Shown: positions 1 through 21,681, counted from the stretch's first letter. The stretch: DNA of 23,090 bases from Patescibacteria group bacterium (GCA_017992195.1 JAGOPC010000014.1:1-23090); one strand, 5' to 3'. The notes: a model not told the origin generated them from the sequence alone. Made by a program: numbers and translations.

Positions 1-1600
1 TTACATAAATTCTAATGCTACGAGTTTCACCTGCGTTAAGATTTCCGATATTCCATGTCAGAGTCTGACCTACCACTGTTGTAGGAGTCGGCACTGCCGA
101 TACGTATGTAAGATCTGCAGGTAATGTATCAGTCACAACAACACCTGTTGCTGTTCCACTTCCTGAGTTACCGTATGTAAGTGTGTAGATTGCATTACCG
201 TTCGGAGTATATCCGCCGGTACTCGCAACGACGTCTTTATTCATATAGAGATTTGGCTTGCTTACACACTGTACCTGCCATGAGGCGCTGCTGTAATTGT
301 TAAGCATAGTGAGCTCATTGCTTATCGCTTCGGCGATACTTACGTTATTCCGGAGCGTTGAACAATCTGGCACAAGTCTTTGAATTCTCGCCGTGATAGT
401 GATCGATCCCCCTGAAAATGCAGTAAGATTTCCGATGTTGAATTTCACTGTTACTGTTCCATTTGGATTTGGGATAATAGCAGACGCAGGTATGGAAGCT
501 CAAACATAGTCGAGACCTGTACCAAGCGTATCAGTGATGACAACGCCTGTCGCCATACCTGAGCCGATATTGTTGAAAGTAAGCTTGTAATATACGAGAC
601 CGCTCTGTACATTGCTTCAAGTCACCGACTTCACAATTGCGAGATCAGGCTTGAGAGGTGCAAGAGGTAACTTACATGCTGCTGTACATGCGCTTCCTGG
701 CGTACCATTAGCAGAACCAAGGTCACACTGTTCTGACGCGATACCGATATTGAATGATCCGTTATCGACGATACCGTCACCACACCAATGTACTGTTCCG
801 TTAAGACACTCATAGGCAACGCGTCTTTCTGTCCCCCGGTCTATCTGTGCAGCACTTACTGGCGCAGAACTTATAGCATAGTCCGAACTCCATACCGGCT
901 TTGCGCTTGACCACGATGATTTGATGTACCATTTCGTAGAAACGGGACCTCCGTCACCGGCAGATACTGGATAAAGCCAGTAGTTATTAGTCTTTGTTCC
1001 TGCAGCTCTTGCAGAAAAAGGTCTATAAGCGATCTCATAGGCTAATTGAAATGTTCTTGATGCTGTACTGTTATTTTCAGGTGCAGAAAGGAGGAAAGCC
1101 GCGCTCTCGATCGCTCTTACCCACACATCTTTGGGTGCGATTTTTGACTGCGCATAGAAAACATTCTGGCTATGGATAGGCGTGCCTACCGAACCAACAA
1201 GCTTTGTCAAAATATTCTGACCTCCTGCCGGAAGATAGTATCTTACCTTTGTACCCGCATATCCGGCTTGTCTTCCTCCTATCAGATAGGCTGGAATAGT
1301 TCCTCCGTTCATTACAAAATTATCTCTTCCATAGTAATTTATACCAAGGTCCTTGATTCCGTCATTATTCTGGTCCATCGCAAGATAGTAGTCCTTATAG
1401 ACATTTGCCTGGGCGCATGAACCTGGAGTAAGCGCAGAAGTCGCAGTTTCCTGGTCGAAAAAGAGCATATTTGTCGAGCTTACGTACCCATTGAGGTAGT
1501 TGTAAGTAGGCCCGGGAATAAGAGCATATGCGGAGCTGCTCAAGACTGCTCCTCAGAGGATCAGTCATGCAGCGAGCACTATTTTCGGAAGGTATTTCAT
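1..1600 (-). CDS. Secreted cell-surface protein, partial (C-terminus lies beyond the window start): signal peptide, ~290-aa unassigned domain, Cys-rich CGDG repeat, two DUF11-type repeats
   Basis: Track ORF 617..1543 extends in both directions when TGA=Gly. Upstream it reaches ATG at 1598-1600 and gives MKYLPKIVLAAGLILGGAVLSSSAYA, a hydrophobic signal peptide with TGA at 1565-1567 and 1553-1555. Downstream it reads through TGA at 617-619 and 500-502 to the window edge with no in-frame TAA/TAG (codon frame ends at 2-4). Motifs: CLNGTVHWCGDGIVDNG...EQCDLG (Myxococcus-type Cys-rich repeat), then two repeats of the DUF11 'conserved repeat domain' type (...LTFNNIGSGMATGVVITDTL..., ...LTYGNSGSGTATGVVVTDTLPADLTYV...GQTLTWNIGNLNAGETRSIRIYV). 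Confidence 0.85.
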
Positions 1601-1631: not shown

Positions 1632-1659
1632 ATGATACTATTTTATTCATATTTGTCAA
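1632..1659 (-). promoter_or_regulatory. Candidate sigma70-type promoter for the surface-protein gene
   Basis: The minus strand reads TTGACA (1659-1654), a 16-nt spacer, then TATCAT (1637-1632). This sits about 30 nt upstream of the ATG at 1600, in the 65-nt gap after the TAA of the upstream gene. Motif match only. Confidence 0.35.
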
Positions 1660-1665
1660 TAGGTC

Positions 1666-4600
1666 TTATGGCTCTCGATCGCCATCATCACTCGGATCGT
1701 CACTTGGGTCGTCATTGATAACATTGATGTCTCCGTTATGACTCTCGGTATTAATACCATCTCCTGGATCTACAGGGTTAGAGTCAGGCTCCCCTTCTAC
1801 TTCCGGTTCCGGCTCTGGCTCTGGTGGTGGAGGCGGCGGCGGAGTATCCGGCTTTTTCTGCTTAGGAGCTTCTCCATACGCTGCTCCGAGACCGATCTTG
1901 AATGAGTTTGCAGAGTTTTCGCTTCCTGTACTTCCCATAGCAACATAGATGTTTCCAGGAGCTGGCTTTACTGTTTTCTTGCTATAGGTGATCTCAAGCT
2001 GACCAAACCCTTGTTTGTATCCTTCATTAGCACATGGCGCATTGAGGAATCTTTCGAAAGTATTCCCCGTCATAGTGATATCCATGCCATTGAGAGTAAT
2101 CTTCCCTGTCTTGATAAGATCGATCAGTTGTGCGTCGCTCATCTCTGCTTTTGCATCAAATTTCTTGATAGATTTTTGAATCATTTCTTTTTGTGCAGCG
2201 AAGTCAGGACTGTTCTTATAGATCTCCAGGAACTTATTGTGAACATCTTTTTCTTTACTTGCATCTTCTCTGAATTTGTCTCCTGCAACTGACTCTACGC
2301 CACCAAACCCAACAAAACCTGTCGTAGGTTTGAGTCCTTGTCTGTAGTATCCGACGATAGCTACAGCGTTGAGTTCTGGATGTGATGAGTACTTTTCTTT
2401 GCTTGTACCGAGCGTTTTTGCGTTATTGTAGATCTTATCGAAAGCATGCGGATCGATAACGATTCCACTATTCTTAAATGCCTCGACATGTCCTTTTCTG
2501 TTTTTCAAAAGTTCTCCAAGATTTTTTGATCATTTCATTCCTTCATGTGCGATGATCGCCTCAAGTTTTGCAGAGACAGAACCCGCCTGGATGAATGAGT
2601 TAACGATAGATCTCTTATGTTCAGTACTCTTTGCCCACATTGCATCAAAATCTTTCTGTGCAGCTGCGTCAAAAATGTGCAGATAGTTCTTATTGAGAGC
2701 ATCCATACTCTTTTTCATCTGATCAAAATTTGCTCCTCTCGTAGAAGTAGCGAACTCTCCAAATGCCTTATTGTATGCTATCTTTTGTTTGTTTGTCGGA
2801 TTTGTCATAGAGACAAATTTTTCATGAGCAGCCTTACTATGGATAAGTGTTTGTATCTTAGCTTCATCCTCATTTGGTAATTCAGGATGGAATTTAAACG
2901 AGAGCTTTTCAGTTTTCACCGTCGTTCTTTCGAGATTTCTTCTGTTTTTATATTCCTCCGGAGTTCCCTCAAGACGGTAGTTAACAGGCATCTTTGACAT
3001 TCTCTTATCATTGAGTTCATATCCGATATATACCTTTTGTTTATCCTTATATGCGCCGACCAATTTACCCGCCATGATATTCATACCCTTATTGAAGGTG
3101 ATTTCATGGTCAGTAATAGAAACGAGCGTTGGGTCTTTTATGAAAACATCAAGCTGGTCGTAGATAGGAGTATCAGTTTCAGTGTTTTGTGAGATAGTGA
3201 TAAGTTCGCCCTTTTCTTCCACAAGATATTTATTACCAATCCGGTATTCGATCTTCTCTGCGTATGAAAGCCCCTTTGTATCGGCATTGTCAAATCTTGC
3301 ATATCATTTGAAGGCTGACAACTGCTTCTCTTTTGCTTCCTTGTCGAATTTGTCCTCACGCTTTGTCGATCTTGTATAGATCTTGAGGCCAACAAACGCT
3401 TTGAGCACAGGAACGCTGAAAAGTATACCAACACCAAGCTCGAGAGAGAAGTCTACTTTACCTCTTGTATGGATGATAGCATCATTTTTCCATGCTGCTA
3501 CGAATGTAGAAGCGATATCCTGTAGCGAGTAACCCTGTTCAAGACCATAGAGTACGTGCTCTGCAACCTGATCGAGCGTCTTTTCATCTGCTTTCGTAAA
3601 TAGATCTCTGAGTTCTGCTTTCACTTCAGAAAGAGTCATATCAGCAGTGATGTTACCGAGTTCTTTCGCGAGGATTCCCTGGATAGACTCTGCTTGTCTG
3701 TTGATACCTGCTTCAAGATTGCTACCAACGTTGATACCTGCTCCGGCGTAACCAGGAGCTGCTTCAGCATAAACACCTGCATGCCATAATCTCTTAGGGG
3801 TGAGCGTCTTTTCAAGCGACTTCGCATTGAGGACCTGCTGAAGATCGACACGTGCAAATGGCACGATGAAATTTGCAACACCAACGTGCGCTGATCATTT
3901 TGTATTTTTCCCAAATTCTACATCACCGTTAAATCCTACGACGAAACCTGGCATACCATTACTACCAACTCCAACTCCGACGAAGAGATGATCTATATTG
4001 ATACCCGCTCCGATACCAGCTCCGGTAGCGCGAGGCGTATTCATATATCCTGCTGCGATTCCTGCAACGATCTGAGAACGAAGCTTTCTTTGGACATCCT
4101 GCGTTGCTGCCGGATCAAGTGAAAGCTCGCTTGGAAGCTCATCGATCACATGTTTTACTTTTTCATCAATCTGTCTTCCATATCTTGCATCGATCTCGTT
4201 CTTATAATCTTCGAGACTCTCTCCTGCTTTATTATTAGTTAACCACTCCTGAAAACTGCTCACCGTCATATATGGAAGAGCTTTCACCAACATGCTTCTG
4301 ATAAGTCCAGCTTTTTCCTCGTCAGCGAGTACCGCATTGAGCTCTTTCACATTATGCCGCTCAGGGAAACTATCTCCCATCTCTCTTGCAGACGGCAGAT
4401 CAGACAGCTTATCGTAAAGTGCTTCTGCAAATACATCTCTTCCCATCATTTTCGATGTAATATCGATCATTTTCTTCAACTGATGCTCAGTGAAGACAAC
4501 TTCTTTTTGATTCTCAACCGTTTTTCTCTGCGCTCTCTTTTCAACTCTATCATCTTTCTTCTCCTTCCTGTTTACATATTTCGCTTCATCCCAAAGCCCA

Positions 4601-5130
4601 GCTTCGACCAATGTCTGCTTCACATTATTACCCCACTCTCTTGCTTCTGATCTACTTGCACCCGTACGCTCCATATACATCTCTTCAAGACCCTTCTTGA
4701 ATTTACTTCCTTTGAGGATTCCTTTGTTGATGAAATTAATAACCATATCCTGGTCGGCACGAGAAAGGTCTGTCTCATAGATCTGCGCGAAAATATCTTT
4801 CTGATCCTGATCGATAGTCTCCTGCTTGTCACGAAGACGATCATATCTTGACTGTTTTCTTTCTCTTACCTCCGTACCACCATACCCGTTATTATCGAGG
4901 TCGGCCAAAATACCGGACTGGAGGCGTTGCACCTCGTTTTGTGTCTCGTCAACAACGTCCTTCTCCTCTTTCTGTTTACGCGTCTCGGCGTCAGAAAGTT
5001 CTTTCTTGAGTTTAGCTTCCTCTTCCTTGCTTGGAGCTCTTGTATCAAGGTCGTGGAGATCTTTACTCTCCTGTTTTGTAGCGGCGTCAGAAACATCTTT
5101 TCTGCGTCCTTCTATACCTTTTGGTGCCAT
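1666..5130 (-). CDS. Giant orphan protein, 1154 aa, no recognisable family: charged coiled-coil-like N-terminus, Gly-zipper-like segments, poly-Pro/acidic C-terminal tail
   Basis: Track ORFs 3895..5130, 3304..3864, 2530..3222 and 1666..2508 are all in one frame. They are separated only by single in-frame TGA codons at 3895-3897, 3304-3306 and 2530-2532. The 'starts' of the downstream pieces are internal GTG/TTG codons. ATG at 5128-5130 is the first start after an upstream in-frame TAG. The true stop is TAA at 1666-1668. There is no N-terminal signal peptide (MAPKGIEGRRKDVSD...). Gly-rich hydrophobic stretches include ATGAGIGAGINIDHLFVGVGVGSNGMPGFVVGFNG and APGYAGAGINVGSNLEAGI. The tail reads PDTPPPPPPPEPEPEPEVEGEPDSNPVDPGD...DDPSDDPSDDGDREP. 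Confidence 0.85.
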
Positions 5131-5333
5131 AGTAATGGAATTAATAGCATAAAAACTATACCCCTATTATAGAAGAAGAAGATTTTTTTAGATAGTTTGA
5201 GTGCCCCTTTCGTATAAATGTCGTAAAAATAAAAACAAAAAAACAAATAACATCATTTTATATAATGACATTATTCATCTAGTATTTATAATATACAATG
5301 TTTATCTACGCTCTATAAACTATATTCTGGCAA

Positions 5334-6740
5334 TTATTTTCCTCCCAACACCACTCTTGCCGTCGAGATAAGTACCTGTAGATCCATCGCAAGAGACCAG
5401 TGTTGTATATAATAGAGTTCGAGCTGAGCTTCCTGCTCAAAAGGCAGTTTATCACGACCAAAGACCTGTGCGTAGCCGGTCAGTCCAGGCTTTGCCACCA
5501 GAAGTCTTTTCATCCATGGTTCGTATTTCGCAACCTCCGGCGGCAGATGTGGTCTTGGTCATACAAGAGACATTGTGCCGATAAACACATTGAAGAGTTG
5601 CGGTAGTTCATCGAGCGATGTTTTACGAAGAATCTTTCCGATCTTCGTCACGCGCGGATCGTCTCCAATTTTTGGAAGGATATGGTCTCTTGTATTTTGT
5701 GTCGCAATAAGTTCGTCGTAGACCTTCTGCGCTTTCTTTCAGCCGTAATTTTTACCGGTACTTAAATGCGTGTACATACTGCGAAATTTAATGAACCGAA
5801 ACGGAACGCCCTTCCTCCCCACTCTTTGCTGAATATAGAATACTGGACCTTTGCTATCGATTTTAATGAGCAATGCGATCAGCAGAAAAACTGGCGACAG
5901 CACGATGATCGCCAGCAGCGAACAGACGAAATCGCAGAATCTCTTCAGCACTCTCAGCCAACCGTCCAGCGGCGAGCTGCTGTATGCCCGTCCCACCACA
6001 GGCCCAATGCGCTGTGGCTGTGCGATCAGATCCTCCAGAAAATAACTTTCCGGGATATGATAAAAAGTTTTTCCATGGTTACGAGCATGGTCAGCGATCG
6101 TCTGCAACAGATTCGTACTATATGATCCTACGGCGATGACAATATCGACTGCTCCCCGGCGACGATTTCCATCGTACTCTTTCTCCTGCACAGGGATCAG
6201 CTCATAGATCTTATATCCGGAAATATCCTGACTGAACTGTTCGTACTGAGCTTGGGTCTTATAGATCACCACTATCTTATAAGGATGTTCTTTCTCCAAG
6301 TAGCTATTGATATTATTCCAGAAAATATCAAAGATACTCAGCGCGATAAATCCGCACAGCGCTGACCAAAGGATCAAAAATCTCGAAATCCCATCAGTGA
6401 AGATAAATCCATTACCGAACAATGCAAGGAATGTCATACAAACCAGCCATCGAACCCGGGCCAATAAGAACTTCCTATAGTAGCCATGCAGCGGTTTAAA
6501 CAGATCGTAGACCCCCAAGAGAAAACATGCACCTACAAAAATAGCAATCGCCGAAACCGCAAATCGGATCGTCTCTGTCAGATTGAACGCAGGTATCGTG
6601 AGCTGTAACCACGGAATCAGATCGGTCGACTGGCGCACCGTGTATCCTATCCGAAATATAACCAGCAGCAACACTATATGAAATAACGGCCTCGCAAGAC
6701 GCAAAATCATCTTATACGACGAGGCAACATTCTTTTTCAT
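5334..6740 (-). CDS. Polyprenyl glycosylphosphotransferase (bacterial sugar transferase, WbaP/EpsB-like), 468 aa
   Basis: Track ORF 5739..6812 stops at TGA 5739-5741. Reading on in frame gives the catalytic C-terminal domain ...[34 protein letters not shown][G]PRPHLPPE...[10 protein letters not shown]..., with the conserved LVGPRP glycine encoded by TGA at 5559-5561. The real stop is TAA at 5334-5336. Several N-terminal TM helices are present. The likely start is ATG 6738-6740 ([10 protein letters not shown]...) rather than the track start at 6812. Confidence 0.9.
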
Positions 6741-7271: not shown

Positions 7272-8357
7272 ATGAAAAAACCACTCCTCACTCTTTTCTA
7301 TCTCATCGCATTTATTGCAGTAAGTTATTTTCTGCGGGAGTATTTGAATGCGCCAAAAAGTTTCATCATCAGTCTCATTATTTCGCTGGGAGTCATTCTA
7401 TTTCTTGTTTCACAGAAAAGTAAGTATACGAAATTTGTCGGCGTCACTCTGATCGTCGCACATTTCATATGGATCATAGGATATTTTATTCCCGTCTATG
7501 AGAAGACGCCTGATATTCGTCAGCGATATCGTAAAGCGACGAATACTATCGCCGCGATCGCAGGAAGCTCCACAGGAACGATCGTAGCATTGGAAGCCAA
7601 TGGGCAGCTCATAAGAGGGCCACTCTCTGACTTCACAAATCCGAGGCCCGTCTACCAAGGCAATCGCGTCAGCACAGCTGCGGCCAGCGTAGCGTCTGAT
7701 GGCCGCTTGCTAGTCAGACTTTGGGACGGCAGCAGCGTACAGCTTTTCCCACAGACGACGATTGCTCTTGAAACGCTGGCGACAGATTTTTCAGCGCTCA
7801 GCTGATCGGCTACGCAAATTAGATTACAATGAGGAATCATCTCCATCCAGACGCGCAGGCGCGTCTACAGTCCCGATCAGCGATCCGTCCGCGCGTGAAG
7901 CATTTCATTCTCATGTAAGGAGTGCATCATAGCATACTCAGGCACGCGCGGCACCATCGCCAGCACTCTCCCCTTCTCGCGACGCATCACCTCCGGAGAG
8001 AACATAACCCTTAGCGGCGGTGTCTACACTTTCAACAACGCTTCTGCATTAACCACGAGCACCAACAAATCTCTTCTCACCCTTCTACAAGGAACAACAA
8101 ATACGACCAATAACCGACGCACCACATACGAAAAAAATCGTCTCCAATATATCACCACTCAACGATGACGAGCTCTCGACACGAGCGTCATTCTCACCAC
8201 CGTCAGCAAAATAAAAATGGCCCTCGTCGGCCTCTTCGACCGAACCTATCGGGAAAGATACGACAACCTCATGCTCTACGAATACATCCTCGGAAATTCA
8301 GACACGATCCCTCCGAGATTTGAGGACAAGAAATTTCTGTATGAGTTTATACAATAA
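7272..8357 (+). CDS. Hypothetical membrane protein, 361 aa (about three N-terminal TM helices plus a soluble C-terminal region)
   Basis: Track ORF 7272..7805 ends at TGA 7803-7805. The same frame stays open for a further 184 codons, interrupted only by TGA at 7830, 7896 and 8166, and ends at TAA 8355-8357. An open run of that length without TAA/TAG is very unlikely in non-coding sequence. Confidence 0.75.
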
Positions 8358-8452: not shown

Positions 8453-9868
8453 ATGGCCTCATCTACTCTCGAATACTTTGATAAAGTATTAGAAATTCCT
8501 AGACCATCCGGAGAAGAAACACTTATGAGGAATAACTTAATTACTCGATGAAAGGAACGTGGTTATGAACATAGAATAGATGATTGTGGAAATCTCGTCG
8601 TCTACGTACCCGGAACGGATGACCAGAAAGATAACGAGACGGTAGTTCTCCAGGCTCACATGGATATGGTGTGCGTAAAAGCTGAGTGATCAAACCATGA
8701 TTTTACAAAAGACGCCATTCGTAAGGTAATAGATGGCGATTGGATGTACGCCGACAATACCACATTATGAGCAGACAATGGTATAGGTATCGCCATGATA
8801 CAAGCTGCAACTCATCTTTCTTCTCATCCCCCACTCGAATTACTTTTTACGGTAGATGAAGAAGTGTGACTTACAGGAGCAATTAATTTGGATGCATCGC
8901 TCTTAACAGGGAAAACAGTTATTAATCTTGATACGGAAGTGTTAGGAGAAATATGTATTAGTTCAGCAGGAGGAGCAAGAGCGAATGTTTCTCAAAAGCT
9001 TGAGGCGGATACCGCGACATACGAACAAAACACCATAGCTATTAAAGAAATGAGATGAGGACACTCAGGTACTGAAATTCATGAAAATAGAGGTAATGCA
9101 ATCAGATTGCTTCTTACTGTCATCCAGAAGGCAAAAGAAGAGCTCTGAATTGAAGATGTGCAAGTAGCAAATATACAATGAGGACAAGCGTTTAATGCTA
9201 TCCCAGGCTCATGTTCCATCACACTTGGAACAGCCAATAATGAGTTGTTCTTGGAAGCTATCAAAAAACATTATGACGTACTCATTCAAAACTATGATGC
9301 CCCAAAAGCGGAACTAGTTATTGATAAACCAGCTGCTCCAAGCAATACTCACCTATTATGATTTGACGCCCTCTCTGATAAGATCTTGTCACAAGCCAAT
9401 GGGGTTATTAACATGAGTGAAAAAATCGACTGACTAGTGGAGACTTCTATCAATCTTGGAATGATTTCTGTCAAAGACAATAATGTGGCTCTTACATTTT
9501 TGCCAAGGTCATCCATTCCCACTAAGTTAGACGTAGAAATAGCCGCACTACAGAATAGATTCTGACCAGAAAACATAGAAATAAAGAGTAAATACTATGG
9601 GCGGGAACAAGACCCAAATAGCGAATTAGTACAAGCGATGAAGACAGTGTATACTAAAGTCTATGGGAAAGAGCCAAAAATCATCTCTATACACGCTTGA
9701 TTAGAATGCTGAGCCATAGCAGGGAAATTATGAGAGTGATCTCAAGCAGTTTCTATATGACCTACTATAACCGACCCTCACTCTCCAAAAGAACGTGTTA
9801 ATATTCCTTCTGTACAAGTGATCGAAAAAGTTCTTTTTGAACTACTACGTCAAACGCATAATAAATAA
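8453..9868 (+). CDS. pepD: Aminoacyl-histidine dipeptidase / Xaa-His dipeptidase (M20 family PepD), 471 aa
   Basis: The track shows no + strand ORF of 60 aa or more here. The frame from ATG 8453 to TAA 9866-9868 contains only TGA as 'stops', 15 by hand count. Translation with TGA=Gly gives PepD motifs with the Gly supplied by TGA: TTL[G]ADNGIG (8768), TVDEEV[G]LTGA, R[G]GHSGTEIH (9056), IQ[G]GQAFNAIP, ID[G]LVETSINLG, IHA[G]LEC[G] (9698, 9710), SI[G]PTITDPHSPKERV. Confidence 0.92.
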
Positions 9869-11323: not shown

Positions 11324-13531
11324 TTACTGCGCTTTCAATGGTTGATCTACCGGCATTGGCGGAGGTGTTGCTTCCGGAAGAGAAGGCTGCGGAAATTGTA
11401 CGGTTACTCATTTGAGATTACTCTTTGAGAAGAGATGCGCAAATTGCGTATTGATGAAATAGTACGTAGTTCCCATATATCCGACTCTTGGCATAAGAGA
11501 GCTCAAGATCCATGGATCTATAACATTACTCACTGGCGTTCCATAATTATATGGATATTTTAGCGACTCCTTATAGTCGATTGATATCGTCTCGCGAAGA
11601 CCTTCCGGACTAAGTGTTCGTCCCTTCATACCGGCGAACTCCGTGATCGATATATCCTGCGGATAACAATCTTTTCTGATCTCGACACCATTGCGATCAT
11701 AGACGACAGTACATTGCTGTGATTTCTCTGTTCTTGCGATCGCAAGAGGCAGAAGAAGCTCCTTCGTCGCAGAGTTAAACATAAACATCCTTGGATTGTA
11801 CATAGCTTCAGTCTGACTACCCTGACCACCCAGAGTTTTTGTCCATGCCTGTACTACTGAAACATTTCCTGCAGTATCTTTCTTTGCAAAATCAATCTTG
11901 TACAGATCTAATTTTATCCCGTCCTGCCTTTCGTTACCATAAATATCCAGCGAAGTATTGAATCCTAATCCGATAAGATACTGGATATTTCCTTGTCTTG
12001 GCCCATACGGATGAAGATAGGCGCTGTATCCAGGCATCTTCAATTGTCCTATGATGGTAGGTTTTGTCACATCACTCATATTGATAACGAATAATGGATC
12101 GATCTGACGATAGGTGACCAGATAGAGATAATTATCGATAAATCTCACTCCATGAAACTGTTCACCCGGCGCAATACGCTCGAGCTTTCCTACAGCCTTT
12201 CCCTTTCCGTCTATCGTATAGACATTCGTAGCGACTCTATTCATAGAGTCTGACGAGTCACTGGTCACTATTCTGAAAATCCCATTACTCTCGTCCATAC
12301 TATACTGACTGTATGTTGTTCCCTTCACTGCGGTTGAATAGTTATACCCAAGTGTCGGTAGTGAGAATTGATGAACGGTTGTATAGGTTCCCTGAGTCCG
12401 CATAGGCATGATACATCTTGCGTTGATAGGACAACGCATTGGTATATTCACATATGAAGGAGAAGTAAGATACAATGAATTTTTCGTCACATGGACTTGA
12501 GAACTATTTCCCATCACCACTTTTATCGTTGGAGCAACACGTGGGGTGTCGAGAGAAAATGTAATAATACTCGTGAGCGACTGTCACCATCAATAATGTG
12601 TATTTCCCTTGGGATCAGGTTTTTTATAGAGCACATTTGTACAGTCAACTTGCGTCGTACTTTTCGCTGTAGTAAATCTCTGTGTTCCGTTCCTATAGGT
12701 AATTGTTGTCGGCTGCATAGAGGTCCAACTTGGCAACAACTGACGACTCGTAAAAGCAAAATCTGTTGGCTTGATCGTCTGACTCGTAGTGGTTTGCATC
12801 GCCTTGTCGCGCATCATGTAGACCGGACCTCGTGTAAAGCTCTGTGAAGTTATGAGCACCAACTTACCATCGACAACTCTGCTCTCTTGGATGTAGCCAT
12901 CGTACTCGTACGCACTTTGTAGTTTCGGCGCTTTCGGATTGGTTATATCATAAATCATCACCGTCGCTTTCTGATCACGCGCTATCATACTGGTTTCGTA
13001 TGCATTATACGCATAAGGCGCAGCTTTACCGCCAACCACGATAAGCATTCCCTTGTGTAAAAAAATCTGCGTACCCCACACATCCTGAGGCAAAGAGATA
13101 CTCGCTTCCACTCTACCAGCGGTCGCGGCAGCAACGATATGTATCTTACGAGCACTATTTGCGTCAACATAGTAGATATACTTACCGTCATTTTTGATCA
13201 CATCCGGCTCGTCGACCCCGGTTTTCTGATTGTTTGTTTGAGAAAAGTCTCCTGCACCACCACCAGCACCCTTACCATCAGCACTGAGAGCCTCCCTCGT
13301 CGCAGCATCATTCATGATCACTCCTCCGCGCACCGGTCCGAAAGATCCCCCATTCCGATTACTCATAAAATATTCTTTAAATACTCCTTCTACTTCCGCG
13401 CACGACTTTGCCTGGATCAACGTAGGATCCCACGATGGTGTTGTTGTCTCAGCCGCTGAAGCGACCCCTGTTACTAAAAATAATGAACCCATAACCACGG
13501 CCATACCGGCCCCCAAATACGACTTATTCAT
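11324..13531 (-). CDS. Secreted beta-propeller domain protein (COG4880 / PF09826-like), 735 aa
   Basis: Track ORFs 12590..13531 and 11408..12520 share one frame and are joined through TGA at 12590-12592 and 12584-12586. The apparent stop at 11408-11410 is also TGA, and reading on adds GVTVQFPQPSLPEATPPPMPVDQPLKAQ before TAA 11324-11326. The N-terminal signal peptide is MNKSYLGAGMAVVMGSLFLVTGVASA. The stretch SQTNNQKTGVDEPDVIKNDGKYIYYV resembles the start of the Beta_propel family. Confidence 0.8.
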
Positions 13532-20833: not shown

Positions 20834-20892
20834 AGTGGTTATCTACCCTTAGGGAATAAAATCATACTGAATCCGTTATTTTCATCTTTCAC

Positions 20893-21567
20893 TCATTGAG
20901 ATCTACCGAACTCTTTAAGTGCTTCCTCGATATAATGAAGTCTTTCAGCAACCTTATCTGCATATATCCTCTCTCTACCCTTCAATCTCACCGCAAATCT
21001 TACACTATATCCATCTTCCAAGAACTCTATCGATTTTTTCATTTTCAATTGTAAATCATTATCTCCGATCGTGTATCCAAACTTCACCTCTTTCATCCCC
21101 TTCGACTTCTGCGTCTTTTTCTTCTCTTTATCGTCTTTCTGCTTATTGTACATATATTTTCCATAATCTACCATCTTTGCAGTACATACCATATCCACCG
21201 GATTGTATGCGATCTGTACGAGGTCTAATCCCTGTTCACCAGCCATACGAAGCGCTTCATCTCTTGCATATGTCCCGAGAATCTGACCTTCAGCGTCCAC
21301 TATAATGATACGCGGAGCTTTAATCATCTCATTGGTAAACACTTGCCTTTGATCTCTGTTCGGCGCTCAGACCGGACGCGGTCCTTGCGGACGAGCACCC
21401 ATTGGTGCACCAGCAGGACGAGCTCCTGTAGCTCACTGAGGACGGTTTGGAAACGATCCTGGCGGCCTTGGTCATCCCGGTCTCGGTCACGATCCTTGCG
21501 GACGCGCCCCCTGCGGTCTATTTTGTCCAAACGATGGACGCGGAGATGTTGATCTTCCTTCTGACAT
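20893..21567 (-). CDS. infC: Translation initiation factor IF-3 with a ~75-aa Pro/Arg/Gly/Gln-rich N-terminal extension, 224 aa
   Basis: Track ORF 20893..21342 starts at an internal GTG. The same frame stays open upstream through TGA at 21367-69, 21433-35, 21472-74 and 21487-89 to ATG 21565-21567. This gives MSEGRSTSPRPSFGQNRPQGARPQGSGPRPGGPRPPGSFPNRPQGATGARPAGAPMGARPQGPRPVGAPNRDQRQVFTNEMIKAPRIIIVD... The segment APNR....EMIKAPRIIIVD resembles the usual IF-3 N-terminus (..RPNRIN.EIRA.EVRL.). That places the conserved protein upstream of the GTG. The exact start is uncertain; ATG 21400-21402 is an alternative. Confidence 0.8.
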
Positions 21568-21604: not shown

Positions 21605-21681
21605 TGGTACTCCCGGCGGGATTTGAACCCGCGATCTCCACCGTGAGAGGGTGGCATCCTAGACCACTAGACGACGAGAGC
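21605..21681 (-). tRNA. tRNA-Glu (anticodon CUC), CCA encoded
   Basis: The reverse complement is GCTCTCGTCGTCTAGTGGTCTAGGATGCCACCCTCTCACGGTGGAGATCGCGGGTTCAAATCCCGCCGGGAGTACCA. The anticodon stem is CCACC/GGTGG with loop CT-CTC-AC. The D-arm (TCGTCTAG.GG.C.AGGA) is Glu-type. Confidence 0.9.

Follow-up and report, generated by a model that had tools for sequence, protein, structure and literature searches.

The cytoskeletal proteins HMW1, HMW3 and P65 of the Mycoplasma terminal organelle carry acidic proline-rich (APR) domains and are devoid of signal peptide. RTX proteins and S-layer proteins secreted by the type I route, Caulobacter RsaA being an example, also have no N-terminal signal and contain almost no cysteine, and their C-terminus is acidic and rich in Gly, Asp and Asn. 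In Vampirococcus lugosii, giant surface proteins with DUF11, PKD, WD40 and integrin-like domains are predicted to be membrane-bound or secreted (PMC8080830). Here, a stretch of 23,090 nucleotides from a Patescibacteria group bacterium (GCA_017992195.1, JAGOPC010000014.1:1-23090), hereafter called the window, was analyzed for a gene located at positions 1666-5130 of the minus strand. An original prediction, made from the DNA sequence only, had described this gene as an orphan hidden as four open reading frames (ORFs). The results indicate that it codes for a single protein of 1154 residues which belongs to an undescribed family, and a structural role in association with the membrane or cell envelope is tentatively proposed for it.

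Under genetic code 25, the minus strand of the 1666-5130 region is one coding sequence (CDS) of 1154 codons followed by a TAA stop codon, with the ATG start at 5130 and the stop at 1666-1668. With the translation table 11, the same region is divided into four minus-strand ORFs of 411 aa (3895-5130), 186 aa (3304-3864), 230 aa (2530-3222) and 280 aa (1666-2508), which share a common frame and are separated by the single TGA codons 412, 609 and 867. The TAA/TAG-free run at this place extends over 1165 codons whereas shuffling the window 200 times gave longest runs of 197 codons on average and 349 at most, showing that the frame is not due to chance. The plus-strand reading of the region was rejected as its frame is riddled with stops, which places the gene on the minus strand; the original prediction had given no strand. 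Homology search yielded three full-length relatives, P0001 (1149 aa, 67% identity), P0002 (1199 aa, 39%) and P0003 (1164 aa, 36%), the three of them being uninterrupted ORFs even under table 11. By alignment, the start codon corresponds to that of P0001 (MAPKGIEG versus MTIKGIEG). The residues encoded by TGA are found in the contexts NTK-G-SAHVGVANFIVPFAR, QLSAFK-G-YAR and AHEGMK-G-SK. The codon 412 (3895-3897, minus strand), read as Gly, falls at a position that is not conserved, the orthologues having A, M and M. At codon 609 (3304-3306, minus strand), the Gly is invariant in the three full-length orthologues (alignment A1), and at codon 867 (2530-2532, minus strand) the closest orthologue, P0001, likewise has a Gly. 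The frame, the shuffles and the intact orthologues are thus in agreement with the proposal that four same-frame ORFs are joined by three TGA codons into one gene.

Genetic code 25 is a hallmark of Gracilibacteria and Absconditabacteria (PMC11452946), and signs of it were seen in all of the seven related loci inspected. In the window, the reading of TGA as Gly follows from the alignment of the PepD dipeptidase gene (8453-9868, plus strand), which contains 15 in-frame TGA codons, with the PDB entry 2qyv (E 1e-79). At least 6 of these 15 codons are aligned with conserved Gly residues of 2qyv, as in TTLxADN/TTLGADN, RxGHSG/RGGHSG, IHAxLECx/IHAGLECG and SIxPT/SIGPT, where x stands for TGA. The only tRNA genes in the window are those for tRNA-Leu(TAA), tRNA-Glu(CTC) and tRNA-Arg(TCT). 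The TGA share of Gly codons differs strongly from gene to gene, with values of 29-40% for PepD, the RluA-like synthase and IF3 (about 40% for the first two), 3-7% for the DUF11, Beta_propel and Bac_transf genes and for the gene under study (3% for the latter, none in its three full-length orthologues), and 0% for the ribosomal protein, RpoA and ADK genes. This difference may result from an avoidance of TGA in highly expressed genes.

Pfam, NCBIfam, PHROGs and PADLOC were searched with the complete protein, with the four fragments and with 52 members of the family, and only noise was obtained. The PDB sequence and profile searches, carried out with the family, the core module and the C-terminal domain, also returned nothing but noise (E >= 0.5), including a gasdermin-B match at E 0.77. 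An AlphaFold model was built from a 52-sequence alignment, with a mean predicted local distance difference test score (pLDDT) of 73.8 and a predicted template modelling score (pTM) of 0.44; a 7-row alignment had given a pLDDT of 46. When this model was submitted to Foldseek, no match was found at E <= 1e-3 in PDB (best 0.97) or BFVD (best 0.016), and all the TM-scores were <=0.07. With E values of 1-6, the matches to large lipid-transfer proteins, outer membrane proteins and MlaD were regarded as fortuitous and discarded. A part of some 450 residues predicted with confidence (600-1060, pLDDT mostly >90) therefore has no counterpart in PDB or BFVD. A phage or defence identity found no match in PHROGs or PADLOC and no family member in viral contigs. 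As to an enzymatic role, the single Cys of the protein is part of a conserved N-x-P-C-x-N-E motif in residues 601-1085 and no conserved His able to pair with it occurs in the family alignments; together with the empty family searches, this leaves the protein without a catalytic signature. The protein was not found to belong to the glycine-zipper proteins, the known pore-forming families, the Sec-exported proteins, the RTX/type I proteins, the large lipid-transfer proteins or the phage and defence proteins. With the empty library searches, these results indicate that it is new at the level of family and fold among the libraries searched, and the statement of the original prediction that no enzymatic or structural family can be recognised held in the remote homology and structure searches that it had called for. 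Orphan proteins are common in candidate phyla radiation (CPR) genomes, so that the interest of one more is moderate.

A profile search of 1.84 billion cluster representatives gave 55 proteins at E <= 1e-3, and those inspected were all fragments or full-length proteins of the same family. The fragments are presumably products cut at TGA by gene callers using code 11. No family member was found among the GTDB species representatives in two scans with different conserved peptides, nor in the viral contigs scanned, and one locus with a family member was found in the JGI metagenomes. A member is present in every related locus recovered from a narrow code-25 clade. The family is thus small and clade-restricted, and the 55 profile matches and a core conservation of 0.73-0.77 show that it is real and under constraint.

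Despite this constraint on its core (residues 440-720 are well conserved), the protein diverges very fast. Between the window and the related locus L001, the identity is 92% for RpoA, 78-87% for ribosomal proteins, 74% for Bac_transf, 57% for the RluA-like synthase, 51% for the DcrB-like protein, 49% for the DUF11 protein, 39% for the protein under study and 35% for a FecR-like transmembrane (TM) protein. Its identity to the counterparts in L004 and L006 is 36% and 40%, respectively, and it is the fastest-diverging protein of the block, with the exception of the FecR-like protein in the comparison with L001. As 39% lies within the 35-51% range of the envelope proteins, its rate is of the envelope kind, unlike that of the cytoplasmic housekeeping proteins. 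The FecR-like gene, divergent and upstream of the block (7272-8357, plus strand), encodes 361 aa with N-terminal TM segments and a weak FecR-like match (E 0.004); its product is 35-54% identical to the corresponding proteins, a pace of evolution equal to that of the gene at 1666-5130.

The N-terminal region, residues 1-360 (4051-5130, minus strand), was delimited by charged fraction and AlphaFold and is rich in Lys, Glu, Asp and Arg, with charged fractions of 0.46, 0.41 and 0.30 in the first three 100-residue blocks. It starts with MAPKGIEGRRKD and is hydrophilic, without any signal-peptide-like segment. The residues 1-100 are mostly modelled with low confidence and residues from about 100 to 360 form a helical domain with pLDDT up to 94; values below 50 occur here at residues 1-17, 66-93 and 200-213. 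The first 400 residues or so had been described as charged and as coiled-coil or disordered: the charge is found, and the disorder is confined to a part of the region. The next module, residues 365-600 (3331-4038, minus strand), is the most conserved of the protein (0.73-0.77) and is modelled with strands. It is composed of Gly-rich amphipathic beta-hairpins at 383-428, 448-471 and 559-592 around a four-helix segment (472-553), and contains the motifs ANFIxPFARV, GINVGS, AAWKN and GKVDFS. It is followed by one or more alpha/beta domains at residues 601-1085 (1876-3330, minus strand), which are modelled with high confidence and end in long strands.

The last region, residues 1086-1154 (1669-1875, minus strand), has a pLDDT below 50 and is predicted to be a disordered tail, first Pro-rich, then acidic and rich in Gly, Asp and Asn. 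The PPPPPPPEPEPEPE linker and the acidic tail, both announced by the original prediction and found where expected, begin at residue 1097. The length and the sequence of this tail vary among orthologues: the Pro run exists in the window protein and P0001 only, and P0003 has no such tail. The possibility that the Pro/Glu run is a microsatellite prone to slippage was considered and rejected, since the codons are mixed and no significant tandem repeat is present in the DNA. The motif G-x-P-x-S-N-P-(V/G)-D recurs in the variable tails of the window protein (1669-1800, minus strand), P0001, P0004, P0005, P0018, P0035 and P0046, and could be a linear binding or processing motif.

The two Gly-rich stretches had been compared to glycine-zipper membrane-insertion motifs. 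They are indeed present, at residues 369-399 and 458-475, and their nature proved to be different. The motifs (G/A/S)xxxGxxxG or GxxxGxxx(G/S/T) were observed 2 times versus 2.2 +/- 1.6 in shuffled sequences, one of them being partly conserved, and the Pfam Gly-zipper models gave no match at E<=1. The family-averaged beta moment of residues 369-479 and 550-593 is 1.4-2.7 versus 0.4-1.2 for the alpha moment, and its peak of 2.69, to be compared with a 90th percentile of 1.34 for the whole protein, is the strongest two-residue amphipathicity of the sequence. In the AlphaFold model, strands were located at 383-471 and 559-592; at least seven amphipathic strands are long (10-20 residues), with aromatic side chains close to their ends. 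Each modelled strand has one hydrophobic face, with a mean Kyte-Doolittle hydropathy (KD) of +1.7 to +3.4, and another made of Gly, Asn and Ser (-0.9 to -1.6). Given the beta periodicity and the chance-level zipper motifs, these stretches are interpreted as amphipathic beta-hairpins and not as alpha-helical zippers, which sets the glycine-zipper proposal aside.

Two alpha-helical TM segments were likewise rejected. The first candidate (368-400) has charged residues in orthologues. The second (557-587) is the only stretch at the hydropathy of a TM helix (best 19-residue KD = 1.75), yet it shows the strongest two-residue periodicity and contains the invariant P574 as well as Lys 577, a Lys kept in most orthologues. 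An origin of the hairpins by internal duplication was also discarded, as hhalign of the four hairpin segments gave probabilities <=4%.

Upstream of the gene, an AT-rich intergenic region of 203 bp (5131-5333, minus strand) with weak sigma-70-like matches (9/12) separates it from Bac_transf (5334-6740, minus strand), a WbaP-like polyprenyl-phosphate sugar-phosphate transferase of 468 aa with 2 TGA codons (PF02397, E 2.4e-62). Downstream, after a gap of 65 bp, a surface protein of the DUF11/CLIPPER-repeat type, which carries a signal peptide at its N-terminus, starts at 1600 (1-1600, minus strand; PF01345, E 8.2e-26) and runs off the window. The transferase and the adhesin-like protein on the same strand with short gaps are those announced by the original prediction. 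Bac_transf lies upstream of the gene in L001-L007, and the DUF11 gene downstream in L001, L002, L004, L005/L006, L007 and L008, so that the order Bac_transf, 1154-aa protein, DUF11/CLIPPER adhesin is kept in the window and the seven related loci wherever the contig reaches. The wider region, with genes for ribosomal proteins, RpoA, ADK, Beta_propel, RluA, DcrB and CutA1, is collinear as well. Promoter and terminator scans gave counts equal to those in shuffled sequence. A near-consensus sigma-70-like element (1632-1659, minus strand; TTGACA, 16-bp spacer, TATCAT, 11/12 matches) is located directly after the stop codon of the gene, 32 bp upstream of the DUF11 start. In the window, and over as much as 10 kb on either side of the gene in the seven related loci, no secretion gene was noticed. 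The Por_Secre_tail domain (PF18962) is present in proteins encoded at L007 20315-21814 and L008 10349-11845, in related code-25 genomes, a few genes downstream of the DUF11 adhesins; this C-terminal sorting domain of type IX secretion was not expected in Patescibacteria, a group regarded as lacking an outer membrane.

The role of the protein may best be guessed from its architecture, that is a charged helical N-terminus, a hairpin module, an alpha/beta C-terminal region and a variable tail. The explanation that we favour, tentatively, is that of a non-enzymatic structural protein tied to the membrane or cell cortex and to the envelope/adhesin apparatus. The protein would be made without Sec signal, probably in abundance, and would stay with the producing cell. 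Through the hydrophobic face of its central beta-sheet module, it would attach to the cytoplasmic membrane or enter it in part, and serve there as a scaffold, cortical or of the envelope, for the surface apparatus encoded nearby (the glycan-initiating transferase and the DUF11 adhesin). In agreement with the original prediction, no signal peptide was found in the window protein or in the orthologues P0001-P0004, P0008, P0012, P0014 and P0021, the N-termini of which were read and analyzed for hydropathy. Since related Absconditabacteria are reported to have only Sec and type IV pilus export machinery (PMC8080830), it is simplest to assume that a protein of this kind remains in the cell which makes it. 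Contacts with a membrane or with other subunits could plausibly be made by the conserved amphipathic sheet. The low TGA share of the gene, as in ribosomal protein genes, hints at the high expression expected for a structural protein. It would be natural to look among fast-evolving orphans of this type for the envelope and host-contact machinery, still unknown, of uncultured CPR bacteria.

Several points weigh against this explanation. The membrane association is a proposal drawn from sequence periodicity, and the low TGA share is a putative proxy for expression. Among the folded parts of the model, the hairpins have the lowest confidence (pLDDT 30-67, for a pTM of 0.44), and the libraries in which no fold match was found are PDB and BFVD only. 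As the whole region is collinear in a narrow clade, the conserved gene order does little to show a functional link, and the element found at 1632-1659 suggests that the DUF11 adhesin has its own promoter and is transcribed separately. Finally, the hairpins could pack their hydrophobic face on the intervening helices of a soluble alpha/beta domain.

This last point leads to the best of the alternatives, a protein soluble in the cytoplasm, such as a scaffold or a factor resembling a cytoskeletal element, in which the hairpin face is buried on the 472-553 helices and the envelope neighbours are incidental. The lack of signal peptide and of convincing alpha-helical TM segment, the charged and helical N-terminus and the four amphipathic helices between the hairpins are all compatible with such a protein, and in a collinear neighbourhood the gene order carries little information. 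Against it, the sequence diverges as fast as those of envelope proteins and unlike those of cytoplasmic ones, the polar strand faces are rich in Gly, Asn and Ser and not charged, and the P/T/D-rich tail resembles wall-spanning linkers. A soluble protein is regarded as only slightly less likely than the favoured explanation.

The host-directed factor put forward by the original prediction would leave the cell by non-classical export and form, with its amphipathic hairpins, a beta-barrel pore in the membrane of a prey or host. The number and length of the strands, with their aromatic ends, the conservation of the hairpins, higher than elsewhere in the protein, the very fast overall divergence and the giant adhesin which adjoins the gene in every locus reaching past its 3' end would suit such a factor, as would the existence of predatory epibionts among the code-25 relatives (PMC8080830). 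This explanation is nevertheless judged improbable: no export signal was seen in the N-termini of the orthologues, neither secretion nor ABC genes were seen in the window and the seven related loci, and no pore-forming family was matched in Pfam, PDB or BFVD. In a broader form, the protein would be the founder of a new class of host-directed effectors of code-25 Patescibacteria, with a Sec-independent exit and a beta-barrel pore or a lipid-extracting cavity acting alongside the DUF11 adhesin. If true, the way in which lipid-auxotrophic epibionts break into their hosts or drain them would become accessible at the molecular level, and the probability of this broader form is estimated to be slightly lower again.

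A lipid-binding or lipid-scavenging protein, in which the hydrophobic sheet faces would line a lipid cavity in a lineage without its own lipid synthesis, was also considered. CPR bacteria are devoid of lipid synthesis and recycle host lipids (PMC8080830), the sheets are amphipathic, and vitellogenin, MTP and lipovitellin appear with long alignments among the noise-level Foldseek matches (ranks 2, 15 and 38). These matches are however at chance level (E 1.1-5.1, probability <=0.06, TM-score about 0.07) and, in the absence of an export signal, a lipid-scavenging role is considered very improbable. Lastly, the reading of the region as a set of four small proteins made separately, as a pseudogene in decay or as filler ORFs, for which only the deposited GenBank annotation made with code 11 speaks, is refuted by the use of TGA as Gly demonstrated within the same window, the intact orthologues of 1149-1199 aa, the Gly invariant at codon 609, the open frame of 1165 codons against a maximum of 349 in shuffles and a core kept down to about 30% identity, and hardly deserves any credit.

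That the gene appears as four ORFs is an artefact of the ordinary kind, caused by a recoding already known. In GenBank, the gene has been deposited as four hypothetical proteins, MBP6911006.1 to MBP6911009.1, obtained with code 11 (KBC03_05490, 411 aa; KBC03_05485, 186 aa; KBC03_05480, 230 aa; KBC03_05475, 280 aa), and an exact-sequence look-up of the 1154-aa product returned no entry in a collection of about 15 billion proteins. The annotation of a public metagenome-assembled genome with the wrong genetic code has therefore introduced into nr four fake hypothetical proteins in place of a single one, and artefacts of this kind hide whole protein families from homology searches. Other genes of the window are split, truncated or lost in the same manner. 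Under code 11, the Beta_propel gene (11324-13531, minus strand) is broken into ORFs of 370 aa and 313 aa, Bac_transf is shortened to 357 aa, and no table-11 ORF >=80 aa remains of PepD with its 15 TGA codons. RpoA (KBC03_05590) carries the label 'hypothetical protein' in GenBank. The frame of the IF3 gene (20839-21400, minus strand) contains seven TGA codons and seems to be extended by about 95 N-terminal aa, in which Pro, Gly, Arg and Gln abound with RPQG-like repeats; this extension lies upstream of the last TGA, and the extended frame reaches towards the tRNA-Glu gene at 21605-21681.

When compared with known systems, the 1154-aa protein shares with RTX and S-layer proteins such as RsaA the missing N-terminal signal, the near-absence of Cys and the acidic C-terminus. 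It differs from them by a tail that is variable and missing from one orthologue (P0003); no HemolysinCabind match, which would reveal the RTX nonapeptide repeats GGxGxDxUx, was obtained, and no ABC or membrane fusion protein (MFP) genes were found in the window or in L001-L008. With the large lipid-transfer proteins of the vitellogenin/MTP type, the fold similarity given by Foldseek is at chance level. The glycine-zipper proteins (VacA N-terminus, Gly-zipper_Omp, Gly-zipper_YMGG and Rick_17kDa_Anti) have similar hydrophobic stretches rich in Gly, Ala and Val, but the spacing is GxGxG in our protein instead of GxxxG.

The beta-pore-forming proteins (aerolysin/haemolysin-type toxins and gasdermins) are also characterized by long strands with a two-residue hydrophobic/polar alternation, in which Gly, Ser and Asn are frequent and aromatic residues lie close to the ends; gasdermins are likewise devoid of signal peptide, and the predicted strands of 10-20 residues would be long enough to span a bilayer, as the hairpins of such proteins are. 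In contrast with them, the protein described here shows no sequence or fold similarity, comprises about 1150 aa with large flanking domains, and is conserved in a housekeeping neighbourhood and not in a toxin or defence island, the PADLOC output being empty. The likeness to the Mycoplasma APR proteins is an analogy only: helical regions are combined with an acidic Pro-rich low-complexity segment in a lineage-specific protein without signal peptide, made by a reduced bacterium that lives attached to surfaces, but no sequence similarity appeared in any search and the Pro run is not conserved within the family itself. Compared with the giant surface proteins of V. lugosii, no known domain and no signal peptide could be recognised; as in these proteins, however, a large, lineage-specific and fast-evolving sequence is encoded among envelope genes, beside a DUF11 adhesin.

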